From NCBI GenBank assembly GCA_010015585.1, contig ML975152.1: a stretch of 64,000 bases of DNA; one strand, written 5' to 3'. Source of the DNA: Eremomyces bilateralis CBS 781.70 (Eukaryota). Positions 21,101 through 48,467 of this stretch are shown here, piece by piece (positions within the stretch are counted from its first letter, which is position 1; each line of letters begins with the position of its first letter). The position numbers were made by a program, and so were the translations under genes. The notes under the pieces were generated by a model. That model saw only the letters and a list, made by a program, of their open reading frames with translations, ran no database searches and was not told the origin of the DNA.

Positions 21101-23044
21101 TTAGATCCGCGCAGGATGTAGATCGGGAGATGCCGTATCATGGGATCCGGGCTGCGGAGGTGAACTGGGACCGATGCTCTTAGGTCTTAGATTCGATGAT
21201 CCAATTGCGGTCTTATTATTAGCGCCCATCTTCCTGGTGAGCTTCGCGTAGTCTGTATGAATCGGTAAGCCTCCAATTCAACCAGTGTTGAAACAATTGC
21301 GCCATAAAATGAGGCAAAAGCATATCAATGCTCAATGTGCGAAAAGAAGAGAAACACGTACGTAGTCCGCAAGCATTACACAAAGTCCTTGCTCCATCCG
21401 GACCCCTCCTCCACTCCGGTGTTTCCGCTCGATTACAACTGTGGCATCGACCAGGGGGTGCCGCTCTCTACACGTATATTAGTATCATACTTCAATCCCG
21501 AAGTCCCGTTCTGAGAACTTACCCCTCGCCTCTTCTTCGCATCGGGTGGATACCCGCCTGCCCCACCACCCTTCGTATCCACATCATACTCATACCGATC
21601 CATCGCTCCACCGACCGCACCCCCCGCAAACATCCCGTTGCCTTTGAACCGCGCCTCGTGCTCCTGCTCCGCGATGGCCTGCTGGTTCAGCGCGAACTCT
21701 CGGATGCGCATCAAGGCCTCTTGGACCCGCTGCCCTTTTTGCAGAAGCGTGTCCACATCCGTCGGGGACGGTAGCGCGATGCTGGAGCGGTGGTGGGGTG
21801 GCATCCCATGCGGTGCGGGAGGTGGCGGCCGCTGGCCGAAGTGCTTGGCGAAATCGAGTATCTGCCCGGAACCTTCGGCGATCTGATGACCAAAGAGTTA
21901 GCGGGGGAGAAAGGTTGGAGGAAATGTGGACTCACCTCGTTCAAGGATGACTCGAAGTCGAAACTTTCTAAGTGACGCTTGATGTTCGCACCGTATGTCT
22001 CGGTTCCGGGTCTGGACCTCATCATTAGCAATAGTCACTATAGTGATTGTCGTTCACATACCTTGGCGGCCCCGCAAATGGCATCGGAGGTGCAGGGGGG
22101 AACCCCGAAGCTGTTGCTCCGCCCGGTTGCTGTCCTGGTTGGGAAGAACCTGGTTGCTGGGTTTGATGTGGTTGCTGCGAGTACGGATATGGGGGTGGAA
22201 ACTGTGAATGATATGCAAACGGTGTGGAAGGCTGTGGAGGGGGAGGAGGCACAGTGGAGGCGGACTGTGGCGGGTGCGGAGAGTGATCAAACCCGGGAGA
22301 TGGAAGCTGAGAGTGGGAATGGGTAGCTGGGTACGGCGGGAAGGGCATCGGTCGGGTAGCGTTCGGAGACGACACGGTACTTGTAGTGTTGGGAGGATGG
22401 AGAGAGAATTTTGAGTTATGTGAGCTTGAGGGGATATTGGAAAACGACGGAATCTGGTCAGGAGGATTTGGAGGCGGTTGAGGAGCATGTATTGGCTGCG
22501 GAGGTTTGCTCAAGAATGACGTGGATGACGATGAGGTCTGCGGATGTTGAAGATGCGGGGTTGATGAGGACCCAGGCATGGACTCTGAAGGGTATGACTT
22601 CTTGAACGGATCTGTTGGGCCGGATGCGGTAACAGACTGCGGAGGAACGGGTTGTGGGTAGGCATTGTGACCGCGAGGGGATGCGTTTGATGGTGGTTGA
22701 ACCGCAAAAGGAGAAACCGGATCGGAACGAAGGGCCTCGTGGATGGACGGGAGTGATTGTCGCTGAGGTGCAGTCGCTGGAGCTTTTCGTTGATCCTTAT
22801 CGTCCCCAGACGTTCGGCGTGACCCAGGGGGTGATATCAATCCGTTATGCCCTGTCATAGAGGGATCGTTGGGATAGGTGAATGAAAACGTCGTGGCCGC
22901 AGCAGTGGGCGTGGAAGAAGCAAACGGCGATTGTGATGACGGAGTACCGGCCATGGCATGGTGTCCAACGGGAACGGTCCCGCTGGGTCCGCCAATACTC
23001 CCCATGCGAGCAGCACCGAGAAAAGGAAACGTCGGGCTAACCAT
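21101..23044 (-). CDS. nsdD: GATA zinc-finger sexual development regulator NsdD/SUB-1
   Basis: [72 protein letters not shown]; four GT-AG introns; the start codon is uncertain. Confidence 0.92.
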
Positions 23045-26000
23045 GGCGGTTGATGAGTGTGCCGTTCGGTGCGAATGCTCAGAGATATCGTCCCTTTTGT
23101 TCTCGGAGTTGAGAAAGTTGATCGATGGTAATGGAGGGGCACTTAACGTCGGTTAGCTTGATGTCGAGAGATTGGCAGTTCGGATACAGCCCAATGCGTC
23201 TTTCCAGACATTTATGGGTGCAGAATGATTGAAGAAAGACAAGAGCATTACGTGCTAGCCGTGCATATTCAAGAGGTGGGGAGTCAAAGGGAGATTAAAC
23301 TACTGACCTTGGCCTCATATCCACACTGGCAGCGTCCATCGTTCTCCTGTCATGAGTTCCTAGAAACGGTGACGGTAAGACAATTGGTTTGTCAGTCGAT
23401 CGAGCTACATGAACGGATCAGAATTCGTAACAACGGAAGGCCGCAGATGCGGTTGGCCGAGTCCGACACCGAAAGCGAGATTAAGCGTTGAGGGCGTGCT
23501 GGACGAGGTCCCTCGATCGGGAACTGATGCCAACCGACCTGCTTGCTGCCGTTCCCTGGACAGGGCAGGTCTGTAGACCTGTTTGCTGATGTGCAGATGT
23601 CTCCACAAAGTCCTCGAGGTCACTCAGTCGGTCTTTAGACCGCACTGCGAGCTTCCGCCCCTCTCGAATATGTCCCCTCCGCCAATAGGCATCGACTGGC
23701 TTGCAGGTCTATGAGTGTTTGCAATCGGATGGCCGGATCGTATATTCGGAAAGTGCTCAATGAACCTTATCCGGGATTCAAGAGTTGGTTGGACGGCCGG
23801 ATGATGTACGCAACTAACCCGTAGGGCGAATGGCTAACACAGATAAAATCTGCAACCGGTAATCGGGTCGACGACGAAGGGGGAAGAGCGAGTCCAAAGG
23901 CAGAGATTTAGGGTCGGTTCTCGTTGGCCCCGTGCTGGAATATGCGGTGCGGATAGCAGCAGCGAGGTGCAAGCAAGGAGGACGTTCGTGGACTCGATGA
24001 GCGGCTGAGCGGAACCGAAACCGCGATACAGATAGGGCAGGATTAAGGCGTAAGAAGGAGTTCTATCGCAGTCGGGTCCTGAGTATATCTCCTAGTCCGG
24101 AAGAAGAAAAGGACGATGCTGCAGGACGTGCGATGAATTCTGTCCTCCTGTTGAATCGGGGAAAGAATCCAACTGAACTGCGAGGACTGCGAGGGCTGCG
24201 AGATGGAGGAAGAGTGGAAGATGGCAAAGAACACTCCGTAATACAGGTTGTAATTAGACCCAGTCATGCCAGGGTAACGGTCGATGGTCCGATGGATCGG
24301 CTTGGCCTGGGATGCGTCTAGGACTAACCAGCGGGCTTACCAGCCGCCGTCCAGGCCACTCCAGGACTCGTGCTTGTCAAGGAGGAGGACTAAGAGGTCT
24401 AGGACTCCAGAGTCCAGGGTCTTTCTGAATCTGAGGGCGTTGAGTGAGGAGAAAAGGGTTGGTGCATCCGTTAGGCAAGTTGGGCAACAGGGACAAGGAA
24501 TCCCACTCCACCAGTAAGTCAAGGGCTCACTCGCAAGCTAGTACGGAAATAGGCTCCTTGTAAGTAACAGCAGGGCATGGAGGGGGCGGGAGGGACGCCC
24601 GATTTACGATCTATCGTGGCCTGTCGATGGGACTAAGAACTTTGTTGGGCCAGATCGGAAATAAGCGTGCCGATGGAGGTTAACAACGATGACGAAGAGG
24701 CCGATGATGATGATGATAATGGAAGTAAATATACGATGGGTTGGGCAGGGCAGGAATTCACAACATCCACGATACACAGTAGATGTTTCGGTATACTGTG
24801 AGCATACTTGGGGATGCTCCCAGTGCTTGAGGTGAGTGCAGAACAAGTCGGCTTCGTATCCTCCACTACACATCACCGATACTGTGGAGATGTTTGGATC
24901 TTGGATGGAAAGATGGGTTCAGGGCTCAGGGCCGGATCCAGTAGTAGTAGTCCATCAACCATCATCCTGTCTTCCACGATCCATCATCTATCTTCCACGT
25001 GAATCATCAATGGAACAGATGCGATCTCAGCTGGGCCACCAACTGTCACTTTACCGGACCGACCAAACAGGAACTCCCTAACTGCCGGAACTTAACCTTG
25101 CAAAGATGCCTCAGTGATCACCGTGATGGTCTATCGAGTGCCTATCGCACATTGTATTACGCAGTGACGCTGGATGACCGGCATGCCTGTCTGGCGCATC
25201 TCCTGTCGCTTTCGGTGATTTACAGACTTACCTATGACCTTATCCACTAACTAGGTCAGGCCATCAATCAGGTTGCAGATAATCTGCCTCTGCAGAGGCA
25301 AGATCGGAGACTTTGTCCAGCATTCGGTTCTCAATTCAACCTTGCTCCCTGTCGCTTGAGCGTGAATTGAGCCCTTGATTCTGTCCCCGGCCCTGACCAA
25401 TCTGCCGATGCTGCACGGACGTAGGGGGCAACTGGGATGCTCACTTCCTTTCCAGGATGATCCCGAGTGTGGCCAGAAGAAACAAGATGCGATCGATTTA
25501 GCGCGTGCGTGCCGAGTGTGCAGGGCGCAGGCTGAAGGGCATACGGGGTATCGGACTTATCATTACACAGATGCTCCCAGGCCTCCGTAATTACTAATTA
25601 CCGTGAACCCAGAACACCCCCGTATTCCACACGCGATCCATGGTCCACCAGGTGCCATTCTTGAAACCCTGGAGGAGTGGAGGCGCTTTCTTTCCACTGG
25701 CGCTCTGTTAAATTCTGTTTACAGTTTTCTCCAGTCCACTTGGGCAGAGGCTGGGATCACCCCCTGATACTACCGCAGTTGCTTCGGTAATTCGCAGATT
25801 CGATTCGGTGCATCCCCATTCCCAAATCCCAACGGTGCCCGGTTCACTAATAAATCAGTGCGCATCAATAGAATCTGCAGGTGAAATCTGTTCAACCTTC
25901 AACCGTTCAAGACCACCATGGTCAGGAGCGGTTTCCCACCAATCAGAAACCATCGAAGAAATCAGGATGCGCGGGAGCTCCACAGACGCCTCCAGTATCG

Positions 26001-32000: not shown

Positions 32001-32740
32001 TCGCTCCCGAAGCCCCGAGCCATCCTCCTGCAAGAATCAGCAGAATATCAGGAGATCTCTCTTTCGCCCAGCTCCCCAAAGCCCACCCAAATCCCAATCC
32101 ATCTTTTGAAGTCAAACTGTGTTTGCGCGGATCCAATTACGAGACGAGGGCCTGGACCGCATCCTCATCCCAGCCCACGAGAAACTATCGCCAACGGCGA
32201 ATCGGCCCACGCCCCCTCCCTTTGCGGTCTGACATGACCACGTTTGTTCCGAAATCCCATTGCCCACCTCGCCGCCTCGTGTGCGTGCATACCCAGTAGA
32301 CCAGAGCTCATCTGAGGCTTGGTCCTAATTTGGGCCGTGGGTTGTGTTACACCTGACATCGCTGTCCTTCTGCTGGTATGTCGCCCTCCGCCTTTTCCTT
32401 GACCAGTCTTTGATGGACGATTTCCTCATCGCAGTTACCATTGCGCTCGTGCTCATTCTCATGGATGCGGCTGATAAGTGGTGGACCGCTACCTCCTCAT
32501 CGGAGCAGAATGCTCTTGGGGAGGATGCTTTTGAAATTGAGAATATCGCTGTATGTGGTAGATGCATCACGGTGTTCTGGAGGATGGAGTTATATATATT
32601 TCCGACCACATGTGCTGACCTGCTTGCTCCATTTATAGGTCGGCCCGTACTGTGTCATTGATACGTTCCACCATCCTCACGTAGCCCCGACAGAATCGAC
32701 AGATCCATATCAAGGCCGCCCGAAGAATACAGGGAAGGGG

Positions 32741-35700
32741 ATGGACGAGCCTGTGGTGACCAGCGCCGATCAATATGGATCGACCCAGGCCCCATGGATC
32801 TCCGAGGATATGACCTCGACGGCTTGGGACAGCTGGATGCAATGGGATGGGTCGGATCCATCAGTGCCTATGAAGACCTTCAACCCTCAAGCTTCGTATA
32901 GCGCTCCGCTGGAGCCGACAACGCAACCTCAATCGTCGCAAGGCTTTTCGGGGGACACGCCGAATATGCTCCCAACTACTACGTCAGGATCGATCACTTA
33001 CTTTGGACAGCCTCTGCGCAGTCCTCACCAGTTTGAATTCCAGGCGTCATCGTCGGCTCCGAACGTCTCCGCTGGAGCGACTATAGGGGCTTCACTTCCA
33101 AGGGATCCAACCTGGCCCTCCGATGAGCGTCTCAACGGCTCCGTATCGCCATCCTTAATTACGAAGTTCCTCGAACCCGAAACTCTATCGGCCCCTCAAT
33201 ATCCTCACGTCTCTCCTCCGTCACGGTCATTATCAACGCCCAGCCTTCAACACAGCCCTCAGGACCGCCCCAGCTCATCCCATTCCGAGGCATCATCGCA
33301 AAACTCGACATCGGAGCCTGTGTCGCAGTCAAAGACCCGGAAGCGGAAAATATCAGGCGACCAGGACTCCTCGGACAATAGAACCGACAAGAACCAGCCG
33401 GTCAAGAAAACCGCCCATAACATGATCGAGAAGCGATACCGAAATAACCTCAATGACAAGATCGCGGCCCTTCGAGATAGTGTACCAAGTCTTCGCGTCA
33501 TGAGCCGAACTAATGACAGCAAAGACGAGGATGAGACGGAAGATTTAGAAGGGTTGACTCCGGCTCACAAGCTGAATAAAGCGACCGTCTTGTCCAAAGC
33601 TACCGAGTATATTCGCCATCTTGAAAAGAGCAATAAGCGCCTTTCCGATGAGATGGCGACCCTTCGAGCACGGCTAGATACGTATGATCGGCTTGCGACG
33701 ACCGCACCGTTGACCTTCAACCCCTCAGTTACGGGCACACCGGGATCCCACCAATTTCCCGAAGATGCTTTCTCGCCAAAGTCGAGCGCGCTGTCGACAC
33801 AAGCTCCCCAGCGGCCTCCTCAGGGCATGATTCCTCTGCCAGAAAGCATGATCAACCTGCATCGAGCCGCGATGAGCCAGGCTCATTATGCCCAACAACA
33901 AGCAGGATATCCGCAATATAGTGCTGCACCCGACCATTCGAATGCTCCGCCGCAACCTGGAATGCCGGCTGGCCGTGGATACTCGTTCGGGAATAAACTG
34001 ATTGTAGGATCGCTTGCTGGTATCATGATCCTCGAAGGATTCTCTGAGAGCGAGTCCGAGAGCGAGGGTACAGAAGCACGAGGATTGATGGCGCTGCCGA
34101 TGCAGCTTCTGAACATGCCCGGTATTCCCGCGTCCTTTGGCGGCCCGTCGGCGGTGTACTTCAAGCTTGCGAAGAGCATGTTGGTCTTCTGTGCCGTCGT
34201 TTACCTCTTGTTGCCGTTGTTCGATTTCAAACCGAAACCCAAACGGAAAACCATCGCCCCCATCCGACTGGCACCCGCTCCATCGTCGGCTTCGCCCGTC
34301 GAGGTCCGACAAATGGCCTGGCTGACGGCCATCCAAACGGTCTGGGTCCCACAGCATAGTTTCTTCCTGGAAGTAGCGGCTTTAGGTCTCAAGACGCTGA
34401 AGCTCAGCACACGCAAGCTGATCGGCTGGCATGGCTATGCTTTACTCACCGGCATCACAAAAGAGCAGGAGCTCGCTCGCGTCAAGGCATGGGAAATCGC
34501 ATTGGACTCTCAACTCACCGGGGGGGACGCGGAGATTAGCATGAGCCGCCTGGTGCTCACGCTCGTGGCGTCGGCGACGTTGCCTAGCACGCCAGAGCGC
34601 CTGATGCTCAAGGCCCTGCACATTCGCGTGCTGCTGTGGGAGGTTGCCAACGCCGGCTACGGTGCGTGGTATATGTTCGAAGAGCTTAGTGCGAAGCTGG
34701 CTCGAGGCTATTGGAAGGCCGCGCTTGCCGACATCTCCGTTTCGAACGGGTTGGGGAAAGATGGTCGCGAGGGTGATGCGGCGTTGCCGGATCACCTTAT
34801 CGCGCTTCTCGAGCAACCCTGCGACGATGTCTTGGTCCAGCCGATTGTCCAGCGGGCATATAACCTCGCGTGGAATAAACCTCGTGATGTCTCGAGTCGG
34901 TGTGTCGACGACCTAATGGACAGCGTGATCGAAGATTTCTCCATCTCATCCCCCCTCGACGCCCTAGCAGCATGGTGGTCAAGCCTCGCGCTCAACAAGG
35001 CCCTCTGCATTTTCCTCGACCCTTCTCCCACCCCGACCTTATCCACCTCCCCCACCTCCTCCACCTCACCAAGCTCCACATCCTCGTCCTCCTCCATCAT
35101 CCACCACCTCGACCTCGCCATCCGCACCGCCCCCCCGGGTTCCACCGCACACATCCGCGCCCTCGTCGCCCGCACCATCCTCGACAACCACGATCCCCGC
35201 GCCTCTATCTCCGCCGCCCTCTCCGCCCTTCCGCCCTCCCCATCCCCCTTCCCCCTTTCAACCCTCGTCATCAACGCTATCTCCCCCCGCCCCGTTGCCC
35301 TCGACGTCCGCGTCGCCCTCACCCTCGCCAAGTGCCTTTGCCTCGCTGAAACCCCCCACTCACCAATCCATCACTCCGCCGCCGCCGACGACGCGCGCGC
35401 GCGCGCCGCTGCGGTGGTCAACTCGCCGCTGGTGGCGCGCCCGGACGAGTTCACGCTGCTGTCGTTCGTGGCGGCGTATACGGTGCTGAACGCGTTCGTA
35501 GAGGACGCGGGGATGTTAGGTCGGTGTAGGGCGGGGCTGGAGCGGTGGGCTGGGGCGCTAAGGGTGTGGGTTGGGGGGCCGAGCGGGGCACGGATCGGGC
35601 TGGGGGAGGGAGGGAGGGAGAGGGTAGTGGAGAGGTGTATTGCGGTGAGTCGGGTGTTGGTGGGGGTGGAGGAGGAGAAGGAGGGAGTGGAGGAGGAGAT

Positions 35701-35758
35701 TGATGCGGGGTATGCGAGTCTGGAGGAGGGGGAGGTGCCGGGCGTGGAGGCGCTGTGA
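32741..35758 (+). CDS. srbA: Sterol regulatory element-binding protein (bHLH, TM segment, DUF2014-type C-terminus)
   Basis: KKTAHNMIEKRYRNNLNDKI with the SREBP-specific Tyr, KLNKATVLSKATEYI, hydrophobic GSLAGIMILEG and SPLDALAAWWSS; 1005 aa uninterrupted ORF. Confidence 0.92.
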   Translation: MDEPVVTSADQYGSTQAPWISEDMTSTAWDSWMQWDGSDPSVPMKTFNPQASYSAPLEPTTQPQSSQGFSGDTPNMLPTTTSGSITYFGQPLRSPHQFEFQASSSAPNVSAGATIGASLPRDPTWPSDERLNGSVSPSLITKFLEPETLSAPQYPHVSPPSRSLSTPSLQHSPQDRPSSSHSEASSQNSTSEPVSQSKTRKRKISGDQDSSDNRTDKNQPVKKTAHNMIEKRYRNNLNDKIAALRDSVPSLRVMSRTNDSKDEDETEDLEGLTPAHKLNKATVLSKATEYIRHLEKSNKRLSDEMATLRARLDTYDRLATTAPLTFNPSVTGTPGSHQFPEDAFSPKSSALSTQAPQRPPQGMIPLPESMINLHRAAMSQAHYAQQQAGYPQYSAAPDHSNAPPQPGMPAGRGYSFGNKLIVGSLAGIMILEGFSESESESEGTEARGLMALPMQLLNMPGIPASFGGPSAVYFKLAKSMLVFCAVVYLLLPLFDFKPKPKRKTIAPIRLAPAPSSASPVEVRQMAWLTAIQTVWVPQHSFFLEVAALGLKTLKLSTRKLIGWHGYALLTGITKEQELARVKAWEIALDSQLTGGDAEISMSRLVLTLVASATLPSTPERLMLKALHIRVLLWEVANAGYGAWYMFEELSAKLARGYWKAALADISVSNGLGKDGREGDAALPDHLIALLEQPCDDVLVQPIVQRAYNLAWNKPRDVSSRCVDDLMDSVIEDFSISSPLDALAAWWSSLALNKALCIFLDPSPTPTLSTSPTSSTSPSSTSSSSSIIHHLDLAIRTAPPGSTAHIRALVARTILDNHDPRASISAALSALPPSPSPFPLSTLVINAISPRPVALDVRVALTLAKCLCLAETPHSPIHHSAAADDARARAAAVVNSPLVARPDEFTLLSFVAAYTVLNAFVEDAGMLGRCRAGLERWAGALRVWVGGPSGARIGLGEGGRERVVERCIAVSRVLVGVEEEKEGVEEEIDAGYASLEEGEVPGVEAL

Positions 35759-38700: not shown

Positions 38701-39214
38701 TTCCATCCGACCAGTCAATATTTTCGACTCGAACTTCACTTCACCGCTGATTCGACCGGCCTACCGACGACCGTACGTCCTCACCAAGCGAGGAACCACC
38801 ACTGTCTCCAACCCGATCGTCGAAATCACCATACCACTCGATTATCCGTTGGACCATTATTGACAGGTCCGAATCTCCTGGAACCAGTCGGCCGCGTTTT
38901 CGCATCATCGACGTTTAGATACAACCATTGTTTGTCGGCGCTACCCGCCCGTAATCTCTTAATCTCGACCTTGTCGTTGCATTCGACTGCTTCATCGACT
39001 TGTTCGATCGTCCCGATTCCCTATATCCACTTCTCGAACGCCGTCGCACTAGAAGCGATCGCCTCGACCCCGCGGTGTTGATTATCACCACACTTGACTT
39101 GACAGCATCAAGCAATAATAAACCTTTCGCTCATTACCAGCAGCGAACCTCGCCGTTCCTTAATCGAGATTCCTTAATCAGTTTCCCGACGCAACGTGTC
39201 CTTCGACCGATATC

Positions 39215-40918
39215 ATGCCGTCGTCGCCGCCCTCAACCTACGGTTCAGACAACGGGATGAGCATGGACGCTGGCGCTCTTGCTCAGATGAATTACGGTCC
39301 GATGAGCCCAGGCGGTGAGATTGGTGCCCCGTCCGCGGGATTCGCCTCTCGCGGAAAGGGAACGGGCCTGAAGCGTCTCAACCTCGCAGCCATCAGTGAG
39401 AATCCTGGCGAGGCGTGTCAGACCCCACGCACTAGCCGATCTCACTTGCTCGCGGGACTTAGGACCGCCCCGAAACCGGGCACTCCCGCCTCGGCGCCTC
39501 TGAACCAACAGCCGCACAACGGGTTCAATATGCGGTCGGACTCTCCGTCTGGGGAGTACCCACGTCACCAGCTTCCGCAGATGCCTCACACTGCCGCTGC
39601 CACACACTTTCCGCAGTCTTCGCAGCACTATGGAGCGCAGAACATGCAGCAGTCGTACCAGCCTGCGAACCATGTGCTTGCACCTCCGTCGATGGCCTTT
39701 TCTCCGGAGGACCAGGAGACAGATCCGAACCTCGTGGCGCAGCTCCTCGCCACCGAGGCGTATCTGAACCAACGCCAACAGCAGCTTCAGCAGCAGCTCC
39801 TCAACCTGACCGGCCAGCAGTTCGGAGGGATGAATTTCAACGGGGGCGCTCGTGGCAACTATGCGGGGAGCCCGCAAACTCCCCCCACCCCCCAGATGGG
39901 TTTCTATGCCCAACAACTGCAGAATGGCGTGTCTCCAATCCCTCAGGAACTGCCTGGGTATCCGGGTGTCTACCGTGTTTTTAATCCGATGACGGGGCAG
40001 TACACGTACGCGGTGGATCCGAGCATGCATCCGCAGCAATCCGTGGCTTCCCCTGTTCCGCAGACCCCGAGCCATCACTTGTACGGTGCTGCCACGGAGC
40101 GCCTTCGCCGTGGAGCATCCCCGATCGATGCGTCCTGCACCAGCCCATTCAGCCCTCGCGGACCTACTCCTCCGAAGCACACGCCGTCGCCCACCCAGCA
40201 GGGCATGGCCCCGCCTCCTGGAAACTCCAACAACTCCGCTCTGCGTCGCAACCACAAGAAGATCTCCTCGCTGAACTTCTCCACCGCCTCCCCGATCTCC
40301 GACGCTGCGCCCCGGTCTGCACGTCCCGCGTTCCCGCCCACCCCCCTCACCGGTACCTTCGGCCCTGGCCAAAACCGCGCCGGCGAGCACCCGACCCGCC
40401 AGCCCCGCGGCCCGCCCCCCATGGAAGAGCTCCTCGCTGCCCCGACCACCAAGCACGAAGGCAGCAAGAATTTCGCCACCCGCCAGCGCCGCAAGGCGGT
40501 CAGCAGCCTGGTCCGCAAAGGCCTCGAGCGCCGCGGCGGCGCCGGCAGCGTGCACGGCAGCATCGGCGGCGCCAGCTCCGGTAGCGTCGGTAGCTCGACG
40601 CCCGTCAGCGAGACGGAGATGACGTTCTCCCTCCCGTCGTCCGACGCGGAGCTCGAGCACCCGTTCGCCGACGGGGACGGGTATGGTGACGATGGGTACT
40701 CCGACGCCGGGACCGGGCGCACATCCGATAAATCGAGCCATGGGAGCCTGCGCGCCGCGGCGATCGGAGCGGAGCGGAAGGAGCGGATGAGCGGGGAGGC
40801 AGAGGCGATAGTTGCGGGTTTGGAGAAGTTGGAGTTGAAGACGCCGCCGGGGGACCGGAGGCAGATGCCGTTCATGTTGTTGGAGCGCGTGGAGAAGCGG
40901 AAGAGCTACTGCGGCTAA
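39215..40918 (+). CDS. Conserved fungal Q/P-rich disordered protein of unknown function
   Basis: 567 aa ORF with coding-like codon usage; blocks TPRTSRSHLLAGLRTAPK and PPTPLTGTFGPGQ.RAGEHP.RQPRGPP.MEEL...KHEGSKNFATRQRR, which I recall from Pezizomycotina hypothetical proteins. Confidence 0.75.
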   Translation: MPSSPPSTYGSDNGMSMDAGALAQMNYGPMSPGGEIGAPSAGFASRGKGTGLKRLNLAAISENPGEACQTPRTSRSHLLAGLRTAPKPGTPASAPLNQQPHNGFNMRSDSPSGEYPRHQLPQMPHTAAATHFPQSSQHYGAQNMQQSYQPANHVLAPPSMAFSPEDQETDPNLVAQLLATEAYLNQRQQQLQQQLLNLTGQQFGGMNFNGGARGNYAGSPQTPPTPQMGFYAQQLQNGVSPIPQELPGYPGVYRVFNPMTGQYTYAVDPSMHPQQSVASPVPQTPSHHLYGAATERLRRGASPIDASCTSPFSPRGPTPPKHTPSPTQQGMAPPPGNSNNSALRRNHKKISSLNFSTASPISDAAPRSARPAFPPTPLTGTFGPGQNRAGEHPTRQPRGPPPMEELLAAPTTKHEGSKNFATRQRRKAVSSLVRKGLERRGGAGSVHGSIGGASSGSVGSSTPVSETEMTFSLPSSDAELEHPFADGDGYGDDGYSDAGTGRTSDKSSHGSLRAAAIGAERKERMSGEAEAIVAGLEKLELKTPPGDRRQMPFMLLERVEKRKSYCG

Positions 40919-42037
40919 TCAGTCCTCCGACGGCGGGGGATAGCAATAGCATGACGGGTTGCCGGCTTACGATCATGGTTCTTACGACTTTCTTCATTTC
41001 TCGTTTCTTGGTGGTTGGTTGGCGTGTGCATCGGCTTCGATCGTCGTTCCGAATTATTCGTTTCCCCATTTCCCCGGACATGGATGGGACCCGCGTCTTG
41101 CTTCCGTACCGTGGCATTTTTTCGATTCTCCGCTTGCATGCTTCCTCGGACGGATCACTCGCTTACCCGTCGCTCGGCCAACTCGGACGTGCATCAACTG
41201 GTTTGATGCACGGTCGTTCGCCGGCGTCGATACACGTACGGGCGGCGGTAGTTTCTCTGTCCAGCGCATCCATCTCCTTTTTTTAATCGCGACCTCGGTC
41301 ACTCGAACGTGGTCCTGGGATTTTCTGGTGCGTTTCCTCGACGTGGAGAATGGATGGAGTGGTTTTTACTTGCGTCGGTTGGGACGGAAGATAGGTTGGG
41401 AAGCTAGAGGGACGGAGGCTTCGAATCGTGGTGGTGGAACGAGTGTCCTCCTCTTTCCTGTTACGTGGGACACGAACGGATATTTGCCGGACGCATGGAC
41501 ACGGGAAGGAAAGTGAAAGGAAGGGGTTATTATTATTATTTAGTTGCGGTGTCCCGTTGGTGGGGTCACGGCCGTTATAACTGAAAGTGCGGTTGATGCA
41601 ATCGACAACGATAGGAATTGAAACGTGGACGTTGAACTATGGTTGGATGCTTTGGTGATGGTGATGGAGTGACTTTGCTTCGGTGTGGATTGGGAAGAAG
41701 TACATGTAACCAAGTGATGGTAGACTGCTGCCCCGTTCGGGTGCTCGTGAAGGGGAAGTTGAAGTTGAAGGAAAGTGACGATGCGGTAGGATGACTAAGC
41801 ATCATCACCTATCCACCTCACCCATCCACCTCGATCAACTGGTTCTAATTATCATTTCTAAGTTCCACCCCCGACTAACATGCACTGAACCGTCCATTCG
41901 CGCGTCTTTACATCCATCCAAACCTTCGACGTCCACTCCCAAGCAAACCGCGGCCTCGAGCACGTCACTCCCTCCGTCAATCCACCGACGCGGCGGTCAA
42001 CCCCGGCGCCCATGGACAATTGATATTGATTCCCACC

Positions 42038-42607
42038 ATGTCCTCGACCAGCAACGCCGTCCCCGGCGCCCTCCGCCTCAAAGGCCGCGGCGTCGACAAG
42101 AAGAAGAAGAAGAAACGCCCGAAGCCCAACGACGCGACCACCCCCGCAACTCACTCGAACCATGCGGCAACCATGAATGAACTCCCAGCGACGGAGACAG
42201 GCGAGGTAATGAAGGGTGAGGAGGGAGGGAAGGGGGAGCGGGAGAAGAAGGAGGTGGAAAGGTTGGAGCGGGAGATTGTGGAGGCGACGCGGGCGGGGAT
42301 GAGCGGGCGGACGGAGGCGGAGAGGCGGTATGAGGAGCGGAGACGGGAGCGGGTATGTTTTCCCTAACTATCCCCCGTGGCTTTTACATCTCGGTTTGGT
42401 GGTTTGAACGAGGAGATGGCGTGCTGACGGTTGTAGATGGCGGAGCGGATGCGGCGCGAGGGAGCGAAGACGCATAAAGAGAAGGTGCAGGAGTTGAATC
42501 GGTATTTGTCGGGGTTGAGTGAGCATCATGATATGTGAGTAGTCGTGGAGGGCTTGTGGTTTGTGATGCGTGCTAATGGAGTTAGGCCGAGAATTGGACC
42601 TGGTTAA
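42038..42607 (+). CDS. FAM32A/DUF1754 family small nuclear protein
   Basis: GALRLKG..KKKKKK, TEAERRYEE, KTHKEKVQELNRYLSGLSEHHDM|PRIGPG*; introns at ~42353-42437 and ~42535-42586. Confidence 0.88.
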
Positions 42608-42734
42608 AGACCGGACGATGGGATCGATGATGCGTGGTATGGCCTAGGGTTCTACTGTATTGATGTGCAACTGGCGTTTGGAAAATCGGTTGGGAGTTAG
42701 GGAGGGTTTATGATCGGTGCCTGACTCGACATCA

Positions 42735-42820
42735 TGAAGGGTTAGGCCGGATGATTCAAGCACTGATATCTGGTGAAGGGTTAGGACGGATGATTCAAGC
42801 ACTGATATCTGGTGAAGGGT
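42735..42820. repeat. 39-bp tandem duplication (about 2.2 copies)
   Basis: tgaagggttagg(c/a)cggatgattcaagcactgatatctgg at 42735-42773 and 42774-42812, plus a partial third copy. Confidence 0.9.
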
Positions 42821-42997
42821 AAAAGTGTGGTATTGCTTTTGTACCTGATGTGTTAGAGTAGATGGTACTCTCCGTACCACGACTAGAAGCGCCTAGAGGG
42901 TCAAAATACAACCACCCTAGTTAACCCGCTCGCGAAAGACTCAGTCCAAACCACTCCTCTCCCCCCGTCCATTATAGCCCCCCTTTCCGTTCAATCA

Positions 42998-43458
42998 TCA
43001 CCCCGCCACATCAGGAAGCTCTCCCTGACCATTCACCGCCATGACGGTCGCCTTCCGCGTCGTCTCGTCGTCCGCATACGAGTTCTTGCCCTTCGAACTC
43101 CCCACGCTGCCGTTCCGGAACACGTTCCACAATATCGGCCGCCGGGGATGGTGGTCGCTCGCGGCGCTCCGCGAATGGTTCTCGACCGCCTGTGCGGCCC
43201 AGAGGGCGGAGAACGGCAGGGAGATGGCCACGGCGGTGTAGATCAGCGCGGCGAGCTGCGGTGCGGTCCCGATGTATTGGCAGACGATGAGCATGATGAA
43301 GGTGGCGCCGATTTACGTGCCGTAGTCGATGCAGGACCTGCCGCCGTGTTGAGGAAGTCGCGGAGGTCGGCGAGGGGGATGATGAGGGTAGTGTTGCCCG
43401 AGAGGAAGGAAAAAGATTGGTTGAAGGAGTCGATGGGGGTGGTGGTGTTGGATGTCAT
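42998..43458 (-). pseudogene. STE2: STE2/PreB alpha-factor pheromone receptor relic (internal deletion, frameshift, stop)
   Basis: N-terminal DSFNQSFSF..IPLADLRDFLN, frameshift, TM1 SCIDYGT*IGATFIMLIV joined directly to QY..PQLAALIYTAVAISLPFSALWAA (Ste2 TM7 signature SLPxSxxWA). Confidence 0.8.
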
Positions 43459-44118
43459 GTTGTTGGTAGTCTGCTTTTTGGGGGTCTTGTTTGCCAGAAA
43501 TCAAGACCGCTTGGATGGTGATGTAGAAGATTGTATTTGCAAGAAGAAGAAGAAGAAGCAGAAGAAAGGAGGAATGAAGTGACTTAAGAAAGATTGACGG
43601 TTGAAGGAAAGGCGGATATTATATCGTTGTAGTAAAGCCAATATGGCGTTGACAATACTATGGGGGACAATATATAGCAGAGCATATGGACAATGCTAAG
43701 CCAGGCGGATGCCTCTGTGACTGAATCCAACTCAGGAGGCGTATCGCGAACCGGATGCATAGAGCAGCTAAGATGAAGGTTTCAGGGACAATGCTAAGAT
43801 TCTGCTATTGTTCATCCTCTTAATATTGATCAAATCTTAATCATGTCTTGTATGCCCCTACCAATATTCCGCGACTGGGGACTGTCGTAAATGGACAGTG
43901 GCTATCACAGTCATTTTCCGTGCTAACCATCTTCTAGTAATGTGATGTGTGTGATCCTGGGTGGGGTCGTTGACAATCCGCTTGAAGCGACGCCACCCAG
44001 GGGAACGATTCGCATTCACCACTGCTGTCGATACCAAATGGCTCTGTGTATAAAACAGAATCTTCAATCTCGGCATGTGTCGGATCGTGGTGGAAATGGC
44101 GGGACTCCATCTCCACCC

Positions 44119-45109
44119 TCAGCTGACGTTGGCGACGGCGAAGTACCCTTTGCTTTCGACGACCCCCCGATCCTTGACCACCGCAGTGTATTTCACCACA
44201 AACTGCGGTTCGACATTGCCAGTCAAGGCGGGATTCACCTGGCTCAGTTGGGACAGTAGATCCACCCCGGCATCCGTCGGACCCAGCAGTTCGGTCAACG
44301 TCCCTCGCGGCAGGACGTCGGTGCAGTCGTTATGCGTGAGCAGCTCGATCGACTCCTTTTTCCCGAACATGATGAGCTGTTTGGGAACGACGCAGCAATC
44401 TCGCACATTGATCTGGTCGACGGCGGGCTTGACCCGCACGTTCGGGAGCAGGCGTTGCAGACGGTTCGTCCCAAACTCGGACAGTCCCAAGCTCTTGATC
44501 GAGCCGTCCTCATACAGCTGTTCCAAAATCCGCCACGTCTGGCTGACCATGTCCACTTCAGCCCGGGTGGCATCGTCGTCGGCCACCCCGTTCTGTAGCG
44601 GCTCCTCCTCGTCCTCGTCGTCCGCGTCGAAGGTGATCCCCGGAAACGACACGATCAGCAAGTCAATGGTGGAGACGCGCAGCTTCTTGAGGACCAAGGC
44701 GATCGCCTCGCGCGTGTGCGCGCATCGTAGTTCCGTGCCTACGCCCGGGAGGTAGAATAGCTTGACGGTGATGTCGTATTGCTCTGGGTCTTCGCTTAGG
44801 CCGGAACAGGGGGATTCGAGCGACGGGACCGATATCTGATCACCGTCGGTCGTCGTCCATGCGCTGAGGGGGAGGTTGGAGACGTCGTCAGGCTTGGTGT
44901 CGCCGTTCTGGTCGGGGTCGACGGCGGCGTCCTTGGCGGCTTGGATGTTAGAGCGGAGGGAGCTGATGAGTTCCAGGTTGGACTTTTCGGCATGGGATTG
45001 GCGGATGAGAGGGGGGCCGCCACTCATAATATTCCTAGATCATGTTAGAAGTCTCTCTCGAGCGGAAAGCAGGTGTGGTGGCTCACGATGTGGACACAAT
45101 GAGTTTCAT
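44119..45109 (-). CDS. Glutamate-cysteine ligase modifier (regulatory) subunit, aldo-keto reductase-like fold
   Basis: MKLIVSTS|NIMSGGP..KSNLELISSLRSN, YDITVKLFYLP, IDLLIVSFPG, LGLSEFG, PAVDQINVRDCCVVP, ELLTHNDC, VVKYTAVVKDRGVVESKGY. Confidence 0.88.
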
Positions 45110-45607
45110 GATGGCAGTTTACAGGAGGTATCCTCTACGCAACCGAAATTGACCGCTCAACTAAGGCAGGTCATGAACCCAGGACATGTAATTACGGTCT
45201 ACCGTAGACAGTAACTGGAGTATTCGCTATTCACAAAGTTTGAATGGAGAAGCCGAGTGCAGTATATAAAGCGTAGGCGTAAACATGCACGATGCCGATG
45301 GCGGGCATATCGGACATGCTGACACAGAAAGCCGACATTATTCCTTCCCCTCTATTGTCCACCAGCACAACAGTGACAGCACAGACTCCCACACGCAGAA
45401 TCTCTCAAGCTCAACGCTGTTAGTTCATCCACCATCACCAAATATTCGCTGCTACCATTTAACAATTAACACCCCATTACCATTCTGCTCGCGCCTCACA
45501 CTCGACCTCCTATTAAACTGCTCCACCACCGGGACCGTCGTTGACCTTCTAGCCTCGAAATTTGGAGCGATCGATATACGTGTTGGATTCTACCAGGCCT
45601 CGACGAG

Positions 45608-46332
45608 ATGGCAATCAAGTAACTGAGCCGGTTTATCGAGACTGCACCCAATGGCTGATCAATGATTTAGATATCTCATTCTCCTTTCGAGACAGGGCAA
45701 AGTGGTATGCTCTCCAGGTTGATTTCTTGCAGCAGACGACAGCTGACCGGCATTAGCGATTAGCTAAATGGTTCACAACCCTTTCCCCCAAAGACAAGGC
45801 GAAGATCGTGAAGGATGTCTCTCAAATTGTTCTTGCACGCCGAACTCGAATGTGCAATTTCCTCGAGTATAAAGGTACGGGATACGACGTGTTTCATGCA
45901 TCCCAGTCTGACCGTCATCAGACACCAAGATCGTCTATCGCCGCTATGCGTCCCTCTTCTTCATCGCCGGGTGCGACTCTACCGACAACGAGCTTATCAC
46001 CCTTGAGATCATCCATCGCTACGTCGAACAAATGGACAAATACTACGGCAACGTCTGTGAGCTGGACATCATCTTCAACTTCCAAAAGGCCTATTTCATC
46101 CTGGATGAGCTGCTGCTTGCCGGTGAGCTGCAGGAAACCAGCAAGAAGAACGTCCTGCGGTGCATCGGCCAGCAAGACAGCCTTGAAGACATGGAGGTGA
46201 GCCCATGACCGTCTCTTTCCCTGGCTTGGAAACTGGGCCGCATTTGTATTCACCTCCGACAAACCCACCGGGTACTAAGATTGCATTACTTCACTGTAGG
46301 CCGAAGAGGACATCGTCACCAAGATCATGTAA
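45608..46332 (+). CDS. APS1: AP-1 adaptor complex sigma subunit (multi-exon)
   Basis: [69 protein letters not shown]. Confidence 0.93.
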
Positions 46333-47250
46333 TTGAGGTGCCCCAAGAGAACGAAGTACGACCTGATCTTGCACGACCATTTCCCCCGACATTTACTGAT
46401 ACATTGGACTTTAGGAGGAACTCGCATTTGAGCAGCAGCTAAAGGACCTTGGGTTCCTCTGAGATGCTGCCATTTCTATCAGGAGTCCTTTATGGACCCT
46501 CCGAACCCAACCATCGACTTTGCTGCGGTCGTAAACTGCGCAACCTCAAGTTCCACCGGAGTGGAACACTACGATCGATCGATGTGGTACTAATCCCGCA
46601 GACTCTGCGACATGAATTATCATACTCCGATCACGGTTTCCTTTATGATACCCAATATACGAAGAAAGACTCACTGTTCACCACGTGTTGGGTTGGTGGT
46701 CATGGCTGGATCCGGCAGCGTACCGGTGCGGCAAGGTGAATGGAACTTGGAGAGCTGCATGACGGACTGATACCTGAGAATGGTGGATGAACAAGAGAAT
46801 GGAGATATGCCTTCCCTTTGTCCAAGACCCCAAGACTCCAAGTACCTACTGTCAAAGTACCTGCTGCTGCACCTCAGTGTCTCATCAACGCATTTGCTTG
46901 TTACACTTGCTTATGTTGCTAGTCCACATGAATGGAGTGCCTGAAGTGAGGCAGGTGCGGCATGGTCGCTGCCTGATTGGCTGCATGATACCTGTCTAAT
47001 TCGCTGCCAATGAATCATCGATTTCGTTGGCTGGATGCGTGGCTGGATCACGTGATGCGCCGTCCATCCGTGGCCGTATCTCCCGTCATGACATCTCCGC
47101 TTCGGCATACAGTCACTCTTCTCAGTCAATTCCCATCATTCAGATCCGACAATACAACACCTTCATTCGAATCACGCCCTATGGCTTTGGTCACTTCTGC
47201 TCAGCTCGTGTAGGCGCAACGCCTGCACTGGGCTTGGTTGACTTCTAACA

Positions 47251-48467
47251 ATGAAGGTATGCGCTGACTCCTGCTGATGCATACCCGACCATATCGGGAA
47301 TTCATTATCACAACACATCGCGGCCGCCGAGTTCGGGGTTGCGTTGGTTGTGGTGAACCCGTTCTACTTGAAATCGCGAATTGTCGGCGTTATCGCCACT
47401 GTTAAACCTGGGCTGACCGAGACTAGTATCTGCCGATTCGCGAGCTGGAAGACGTCACCACCGCCTTGAACTTCGATACAGCGGACTGCCACGTGATCGG
47501 AGGCTGCGACCTGTATACGACCAAGGCTGCTGGCAGTGACAAGAAGCTCTACAAGGAGATCGAAGATTCCCTGGAATCCCAACATGAGACCCTCCTCAAA
47601 CTCTCCGTTTCCCTCTCCCCACCGCAGGCCGAGTCCCTCGGCGCATCGTTGAATCTCTCCCGCTCCAGCGCGTTCGGTCCGCTGAGCCAGGTGTCAAGCC
47701 GTCGCACCTTCGCATACTTGATCGCGACGCTGAATTCCAGCCATCCCGACTATGACTTTTCGAACATCCTTCGACCGTCGGACTTCCGACGGGAGCGGTA
47801 CTTTACCGCCGTCACCAACCGGATCGACTCGACTATCTACAATCTGCGACCGCGGCCGGTGACGGTGCTGCAGGGTGCATCGCAAAGCACCACTGGTAGC
47901 AGCGCATGGGGACCGCGGATGTGGCGGCTCATCGACAATGAGATGGACCTTCGCTCCTGCGACGTGTACACGTATCTGCCGGAAGAAGACCCCTTCCAGG
48001 GCGAGGAAGGCGCGATCTGGAGCATCCATCATTTCTTCTTCAACAAGCAGAAGAAGCGAGTCTGCTATATCCACCTTCGCGGCATGAGCATCATTGGACA
48101 CACCCCCTTGCGCGCGCCTATCGCGCCCACGCCGAAGAAGAAGCGACGTAGCTCTGTCTATGACGACGGCGCGAGGAAGCGCGCGGTGTTCTGGCTGGGC
48201 GAGCGCGCGGGGATCGACTACGCCGACGACGATGACGATGACATGGTCATCGATAACCCGGGCGACGACGAAGTCGACAACGACCTAGACCTCCTAGATC
48301 ACGAACATGCACTAGTCAGCGATTCTTCCAGCTCGTCGCTACAGTCGATGCGGGGTCGGAGGCGAGGGTCGGCGACGGTGAGCGAGACCTCGTCACGGCG
48401 CAAGAACCGGAGCGGCGTTCGTGCGATGAGCGAGTCCATTATGGAGACAATGGAACTTGATTCTTAG
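47251..48467 (+). CDS. MAF1: RNA polymerase III repressor Maf1
   Basis: MK|YL start (intron 47257-47426), YTTKAAGSDKKLYK, FGPLSQVSSRRTFAYLIATLNSSHPDYDFS, WSIHHFFFNK..KRV. Confidence 0.95.

Follow-up and report, generated by a model that had tools for sequence, protein, structure and literature searches.

The window, by which we mean the whole 64,000-nucleotide stretch of Eremomyces bilateralis CBS 781.70 DNA analysed here, holds on its minus strand, between positions 43458 and 42998, the remnant of a gene for a STE2/PreB alpha-pheromone receptor, measuring 461 bp from ATG to stop. The remnant retains 153 of ~370 codons, spread over two frames with a stop, and these represent the N-terminus and most of the first transmembrane helix (TM1), fused to the end of TM6, TM7, and the C-terminal tail. 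Its upstream neighbour on the same strand is a gene of the aldo/keto-reductase family (44119–45153, minus strand; PF00248, E 2.3e-11), having a 52-nt intron at 45034–45085 that appears as a spliced joint in the contigs of the sequencing run X3, and beyond this reductase gene are found those of AP-1 sigma and then Maf1, the Maf1 frame being 93% identical to the Maf1 recorded for CBS 781.70. On the downstream side, in convergent orientation, there is a FAM32A-family gene (41879–42816, plus strand; PF08555, E 1.9e-09), with introns at ~42352–42435 and 42535–42585 placed by X3 joints and contigs. A preliminary description of this DNA had proposed the flanks FAM32A-STE2-GCLM, and both flanking genes were indeed found, its candidate GCLM being the aldo/keto-reductase-family gene. 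The 3' end of the FAM32A gene carries a tandem repeat of a 39-bp unit (2.2 copies, 97% identity; 42735–42820), which is covered by X3 contigs, and the Logan contigs of both runs break there.

Farther along the window, a GATA zinc-finger exon (PF00320, E 7.4e-13) is located at 21219–23152 on the minus strand, downstream of long Pro/Ser-rich frames and ~21.5 kb from the relic; the gene is a candidate NsdD, matching what the preliminary description had named nsdD, 20 kb away. A frame of 1039 codons (32639–35758, plus strand) contains a bHLH domain together with DUF2014, which is presumably the make-up of SREBP-type sterol regulators. At 39164–40918, two open frames of 584 and 557 codons occupy opposite strands of the same 1.7 kb, at a GC content of up to 0.75, and neither has a Pfam match. 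The element TGAAACA, which we take to be the yeast Ste12-type pheromone response element, occurs 8 times in the window, where 7.6 occurrences would be expected, and none of these falls between the relic and the reductase gene.

The anatomy of the relic is described here with reference to our own STE2 profile of 370 positions, made from 118 of 120 listed PreB relatives, all of them intact, whose source is the Aspergillaceae and not close relatives, while the helix limits follow our own reading of the hydrophobic runs of A. terreus PreB. Starting at the ATG at 43458, the exon 1 remnant in its original frame (frame A, MTSN...DLRDF, which reads MTSNTTTPIDSFNQSF...IIPLADLRDF) extends over 43354–43458 on the minus strand according to the ORF listing, and corresponds to the extracellular N-terminus, Met1–Phe35, at profile positions 3–35, with a third-position GC content (GC3) of 0.86, a D-x-F-x-Q motif, and three N-x-T sites. 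In the codon after Asp-Phe (43351–43353, minus strand), one base has been lost, as judged from motif spacing and GC3 phase, and the second frame, QHGGRSCIDYGT, carries on from there with the juxtamembrane stretch and the start of TM1 (43316–43351, minus strand; profile positions 36–45), where BLASTP aligns residues 34–50 of A. terreus PreB at E 0.002. This second frame reads ...SCIDYGT up to the nonsense codon TAA at 43313–43315 (minus strand), which stands at a TM1 glutamine and has the same letters in X1 and X3 contigs; after the TAA, it continues as IGATFIMLIVCQYIGTAPQLAALIYTAVAISLPFSALWAAQ..., running through IGATFIMLIVCQY...ISLPFSALWAAQ... down to a TGA at 42998–43000. The part behind the TAA consists of the rest of TM1 (IGATFIMLIV, 43283–43312, minus strand), with which the first profile domain ends at position 56, followed by the exon-2-derived part (42998–43282, minus strand), that is, the end of TM6 (CQY), the third outer loop, TM7 (ISLPFSALWA), the C-terminal tail, and the TGA, with a GC3 of 0.84. 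The peptides quoted in the preliminary description are all present on the minus strand where it had placed them.

Over the last ~15 codons of the tail (43014–43060), the GC3 phase returns to that of the first frame, possibly because of another small frameshift near 43055; little would be changed by it, given that the two frames end only 13 nt apart (43011 and 42998). In addition, a (CTT)n run of ~8.7 copies lies at 43541–43566, 83 nt upstream of the relic ATG, and the X1 contigs end and restart there.

The homology to STE2/PreB was followed with several searches. Among the 2727 stop-to-stop frames of the window, the sole match to our own profile was the frame at 43001–43312 on the minus strand (E 3.1e-12, positions 250–331), with the runner-up at E 3.2, and the full read-through with X at the two breaks reached 64.6 bits (E 1.1e-18) in the collinear domains 4–56 and 251–330. 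The N part, read through in the same way with X at the breaks, scored 28.1 bits, a value attained by 0/2000 shuffles (maximum 4.7), it being understood that the read-through frames were picked with the hypothesis already known and that the support for the N piece depends on that read-through. The Pfam family PF02116 (STE2) matched the 104-aa C piece at positions 246–279/280 (E 9.8e-05; 22.2 bits, under the curated cutoff of 27.2), and with the read-through, having X at the stop, it gave 24.8 bits in two stretches, again without reaching the gathering threshold of 27.2. With phmmer, two proteins were found among 1.84 billion representatives, namely the 92-aa gene model of the locus itself (99% identical) and A. 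terreus PreB (E 4.9e-04, in two stretches); the latter, the best named match of the relic, was also aligned by BLASTP over TM7 and the tail (residues 253–333) at E 6e-09, besides the TM1 motif already mentioned. Descent from the PF02116 family therefore has in its favour a significant and collinear profile match, accompanied by shuffle and frame controls, and the preliminary description, which had called the locus a STE2/PreB fossil, is borne out by the Pfam STE2 match to the C half (below cutoff) and by the match of our own profile to both halves. The N-terminal piece by itself matched no Pfam family, gave a BLASTP E of 6.5 with PreB, and had no tblastn match in 80 related loci; the search for longer homologous proteins with the C piece returned 104 candidates, none at E ≤ 0.01. 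The profile detected no other STE2 pieces in the window, and the 449 tblastn pieces outside the locus (118 queries, cutoff 10), the best of them at E 0.018, were taken as noise.

GC3 provides a separate signal: it amounts to 0.86, 0.94, and 0.84 in the three inferred frames, compared with ~0.5 in the flanking intergenic DNA and 0.76–0.80 in the intact neighbours, and it thus agrees independently with the frames chosen by homology. The relic covers 15 columns with at least 90% conservation in a set of 129 representatives, and it keeps 11 of them, the departures being P7S, Q46stop, L53M, and L277F, while intact members show a mean of 0.43 such departures and only 2/129 of them reach four. Since the codon-position GC bias is intact, most of the conserved positions are kept, and there are only three disabling events, the decay is probably recent. 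What the locus lacks is equally clear, given that profile positions 57–250 have no counterpart anywhere in the window, leaving no set of seven helices, and that the frame is interrupted by both the frameshift and the TAA, each present in the contigs of two runs.

The three lesions counted are the 1-nt loss at ~43351–43353, the TAA at 43313–43315, and a deletion of ~640 bp. For the first of these, the relatives read D-x-x-x-[FY]-x-Q-Y-G-I-R-I-C-I-N-Y and the relic D-L-R-D-F-(CT)-Q-H-G-G-R-S-C-I-D-Y, so that one codon at 43351–43353 exactly restores the spacing to the C-I-N/D-Y-G motif of the relatives; the GC3 phase switch falls between 43362 and 43350, and the profile score of the N part is 27.9 bits with the break at 43351–43353 vs. 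18.8 bits otherwise. Motif spacing, phase switch, and better score together place the frameshift at ~43351–43353, and therefore the frameshift of the preliminary description stands, but not its position near 43340, which is ~10 nt off, the break being located upstream. The column of the TAA is Gln in 118/118 intact receptors, in agreement with the earlier reading of a CAA-to-TAA stop, and the TAA would have come from CAA by a single C-to-T change, CAG being the other Gln codon. Two further ideas about this stop were set aside: repeat-induced point mutation (RIP) behind the CAA-to-TAA change, as the locus has 56–66% GC and no duplicate in view, and rescue of the stop by A-to-I RNA editing, as the X3 contig has the same letters and the frameshift and the deletion are beyond editing.

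As for the deletion, profile positions ~57–250 are missing, which takes away the last part of TM1 and everything that follows up to nearly the end of TM6. Profile domain 1 ends with position 56 on a V (43283–43285) and domain 2 starts with position 251 on an L (43289–43291), the two domains overlapping, and the residues LIV are compatible both with TM1, at its end, and with exon 2, at its start, so the deletion junction lies somewhere within 43283–43297. The preliminary description had claimed that TM2–TM6 were deleted with TM1 fused to TM7; the deletion is upheld, but not the direct fusion to TM7, since the last TM6 residues (CQY) are kept. Taken together, the loss of one nucleotide after codon 35 shifts the frame; even with the frame restored, the TAA at the invariant TM1 glutamine would still block it; and the ~640 bp gone would comprise the rest of exon 1, from the end of TM1 to most of TM6 (~192–196 codons), plus a single intron of ~54 nt.

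This intron is found at profile position 248/249 of STE2 in 66/80 related loci (39/46 clusters), with lengths of 48–92 nt and a median of 54; in the locus L040, it is a phase 1 intron that interrupts an Ala codon directly ahead of (L/I)FxxLQY. The 3' half of the relic starts at profile position ~249–251, which corresponds to the first codons of the last exon, and no trace of the intron is left. What is new here, therefore, is that the relic combines the front of exon 1 with exon 2, the latter complete or complete but for up to five codons, with the 3' breakpoint located 0–14 nt into exon 2. In four near-identical loci of the sample (L058–L061), STE2 exon 1 also changes frame, at profile position ~134, where the pieces overlap and an intron would not fit; this may reflect damage to a further receptor gene or an error of sequencing.

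A longer form of the same locus probably exists in a relative. A contig of 81,286 nt from X4, a run coded as a different organism, is collinear with the window, with pieces of 80–88% identity in FAM32A, the receptor tail (43040–43089), TM7 (43178–43227), and the reductase gene, and since its coding DNA is only 80–88% identical, it belongs to a different, related genome. From the TM7 piece to the reductase gene, there are 1527 letters in X4 vs. 889 in the window, a difference of +638 that falls within the 630–642 predicted for 192–196 missing codons plus the median 54-nt intron; this is a fit of length alone, and the extra bases could be other than STE2 sequence. With these 638 more bases at that place in X4, the large deletion probably postdates the split from this relative.

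The surroundings of intact STE2 relatives were studied in 80 metagenome loci, forming 46 clusters (≥ 97% nucleotide identity), with 6-kb flanks, a flank of 3 kb or more being available on one side in 56/80 loci. Near the intact STE2, the reductase gene is present in 8/80 loci (4/46 clusters), AP-1 sigma in 4/80 (3/46), Maf1 in 3/80 (2/46), and FAM32A in 3/80 (3/46). The loci L040, L009, and L024 have the order STE2, reductase, AP-1 sigma, and Maf1 as in the window (42998–48467), with STE2 on the other strand, which implies what may be a small STE2 inversion in one lineage, the arrangement of the window apparently being common to the X4 relative. The linkage of these neighbours to intact STE2 elsewhere, together with the collinearity of X4, indicates that the relic lies in the ancestral locus of the receptor. 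We are thus highly confident that the locus is a decayed STE2/PreB ortholog in its ancestral neighbourhood, unable to make a receptor.

Several other explanations of the locus have to be weighed against this one. An artefact of assembly or sequencing, by which TM2–TM6 would have been collapsed or the frameshift would be an error of base calling, has a negligible probability, even considering that the check was made with Logan contigs. In X1, a DNA run that is possibly the source sample of the assembly, a 746-nt contig spans 42791–43530 with 0 differences, and in X3, which comes from another study, a 2101-nt contig runs over 43004–45033, spliced to 45086–45153, without a single difference or gap; neither run has a joint or loose end inside the relic. 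X3 shows three GT..AG joints in two neighbouring genes and thus holds spliced RNA, so we call it RNA-type by its joints, although it may contain some DNA and gives no cover at 42864–42987. No contig of a further run, X5, matched here, and neither this nor the gap in X3 counts as evidence. Frameshift, stop, and junction are accordingly present in two libraries assembled separately from each other and independently of the genome record, covering the whole locus between them, and are not assembly artefacts, which disposes of the assembly collapse at the junction that the preliminary description had wanted checked; X1 and X3 are probably the same strain, and the lesions are therefore seen in one strain. 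It is also quite improbable that the relic represents a dead additional copy, or a locus that has been superseded, with an intact STE2 elsewhere still sensing the alpha-factor and no function lost. Duplicates do occur, given that two different STE2 proteins (P0055 and P0081) go under one Penicillium species name, and the inversion of STE2 relative to L040, L009, and L024 means that the region has been rearranged, but STE2 is usually single-copy in Pezizomycotina, the relic sits among the very genes that are linked to a single intact STE2 elsewhere, and the diverged relative X4 is longer at the same place.

The remnant could also be thought to encode a working small membrane protein, consisting of TM7 and the cytoplasmic tail in a new role, since the public annotation lists a 92-aa “hypothetical protein P152DRAFT_471863” of Eremomyces bilateralis CBS 781.70 at 43031–43294 on the minus strand (residues 1–88 100% identical), starting with a Met inside the TM1 remnant, and a frame of 98 codons is available from the same Met at 43294. 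Behind the TAA, the frame stays open over 104 codons with its high GC3, the tail motif RRxxLW is kept, and the stretch is present in the contigs of X3, a run with spliced transcripts of the neighbours, where the relic letters are contiguous with the upstream reductase gene in a contig that cannot tell one transcript from two. Against this, DNA of 66% GC often contains long open frames, the 3' splice predicted by the model is absent from the X3 joints, the phmmer search of 1.84 billion representatives found no other protein of such a short form, and we know of no activity for a receptor tail without its G-protein-coupling core. All this makes a working small protein very improbable, and the public annotation can be corrected, with the 92-aa “hypothetical protein” being the tail of a dead receptor.

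Within our preferred reading of a decayed ortholog, the origin of the large deletion also has two possible routes. Most likely, it was an ordinary genomic deletion between the similar runs of Ile/Leu/Val codons with which TM1 ends and exon 2 starts. Rather unlikely is an RNA-mediated route, in which the splicing of a STE2 transcript would have joined a cryptic donor in the last part of TM1 to the native acceptor, the product being reverse-transcribed and the copy then replacing the genomic sequence, so that the intron and the exon sequence 5' of it would be removed in one step, as in the reverse-transcriptase model of intron loss applied to a mis-spliced message. That model is presented as an established proposal for intron loss in the available portion of its source (PMC3652778). 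The retained 3' half does begin at the start of the last exon, with the intron of 66/80 loci gone without a trace, and by our own after-the-fact estimate, a random 3' breakpoint over the ~1 kb downstream would land within those 15 nt with a chance of ~1.5%. On the other hand, this coincidence was spotted post hoc, the junction is ambiguous within 43283–43297, and an origin of LIV in TM1 would mean that exon 2 has also lost its first five codons, in which case the model fails; the junction bases do not fit the split Ala codon expected from L040, and the similar Ile/Leu/Val runs in TM1 and at the exon-2 start favour slippage or microhomology joining. It is likewise unlikely, as a combined proposition, that the 640-bp loss is the imprint of a mis-spliced STE2 transcript copied back, with the fungus then completing its sexual cycle without an alpha-pheromone receptor. 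If true, the RNA route would provide a natural example of a reverse transcript removing coding sequence together with an intron, and a deletion edge matching the single conserved intron makes the relic a small test case for the origin of exon-plus-intron deletions.

Compared with known receptors, the relic resembles Aspergillus PreB/GprA and other Pezizomycotina Ste2-type receptors (PF02116) in its D-x-F-x-Q motif, in C-I-N/D-Y-G-x-Q-x-G-A of TM1, in S-L-P-x-S-x-x-W-A of TM7, and in the RRxLW of the tail, but in contrast to Aspergillus PreB/GprA, it lacks TM2 to most of TM6, is divided between two frames with a stop, and cannot work. Its intact relatives match Saccharomyces cerevisiae Ste2 (7AD3, 7QA8, and 9SH6) at E 1e-33 over the whole seven-helix core, and the relic therefore descends from the same class D receptor family, although its own read-through matched no chain when compared with solved structures (0 matches).

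Decay of the alpha-receptor gene is already known from Colletotrichum and Ambrosiella, and the relic is one more case. In Colletotrichum, the accessible text describes preB genes with lost start codons, premature stops, frameshifting indels, and larger deletions, the gene being left in place and sex retained (PMC8661429), and the relic is similar in being an alpha-receptor gene disabled in place. The differences are that Colletotrichum belongs to the Sordariomycetes and has an irregular, MAT1-2-only mating, and that the same accessible text describes no deletion at an exon boundary (PMC8661429). In homothallic, cleistothecium-forming Ambrosiella, the alpha-receptors have lost transmembrane domains by deletion, which its authors, in the part of the article at hand, read as relaxed selection once the system became dispensable (PMC13037118); the Ambrosiella genes are, according to the same part, still predicted open frames with several helices (PMC13037118), whereas the relic retains only TM1 and TM7 and its frame is broken twice.

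The strain CBS 781.70 originated from pack-rat dung, and E. bilateralis is characterized, in the available portions of its descriptions, by cleistothecia and no asexual morph (PMC4150071, PMC7082219). The preliminary description had offered an asexual life style as one option, and this is unfitting for a species so described in the available portion of PMC4150071. From its description, E. bilateralis is probably self-fertile, which the cited descriptions, as far as available, do not state. In the literature mentioning Eremomyces, judged mostly by title, no link to mating genes was found. If there is no other copy, the death of the alpha-receptor gene in a fungus whose sexual state is the only one known would point to selfing without alpha-factor/Ste2 signalling.

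In summary, the locus offers a natural knock-out of the alpha-pheromone receptor, clean and datable, in a member of the Dothideomycetes of which only the sexual state has been described. In other respects, the relic is an ordinary pseudogene; if there is no second copy in the genome, fruiting and meiosis in this lineage would need no alpha-factor/Ste2 signalling, and the relic would extend the Colletotrichum and Ambrosiella reports, both from Sordariomycetes, to a distant class.
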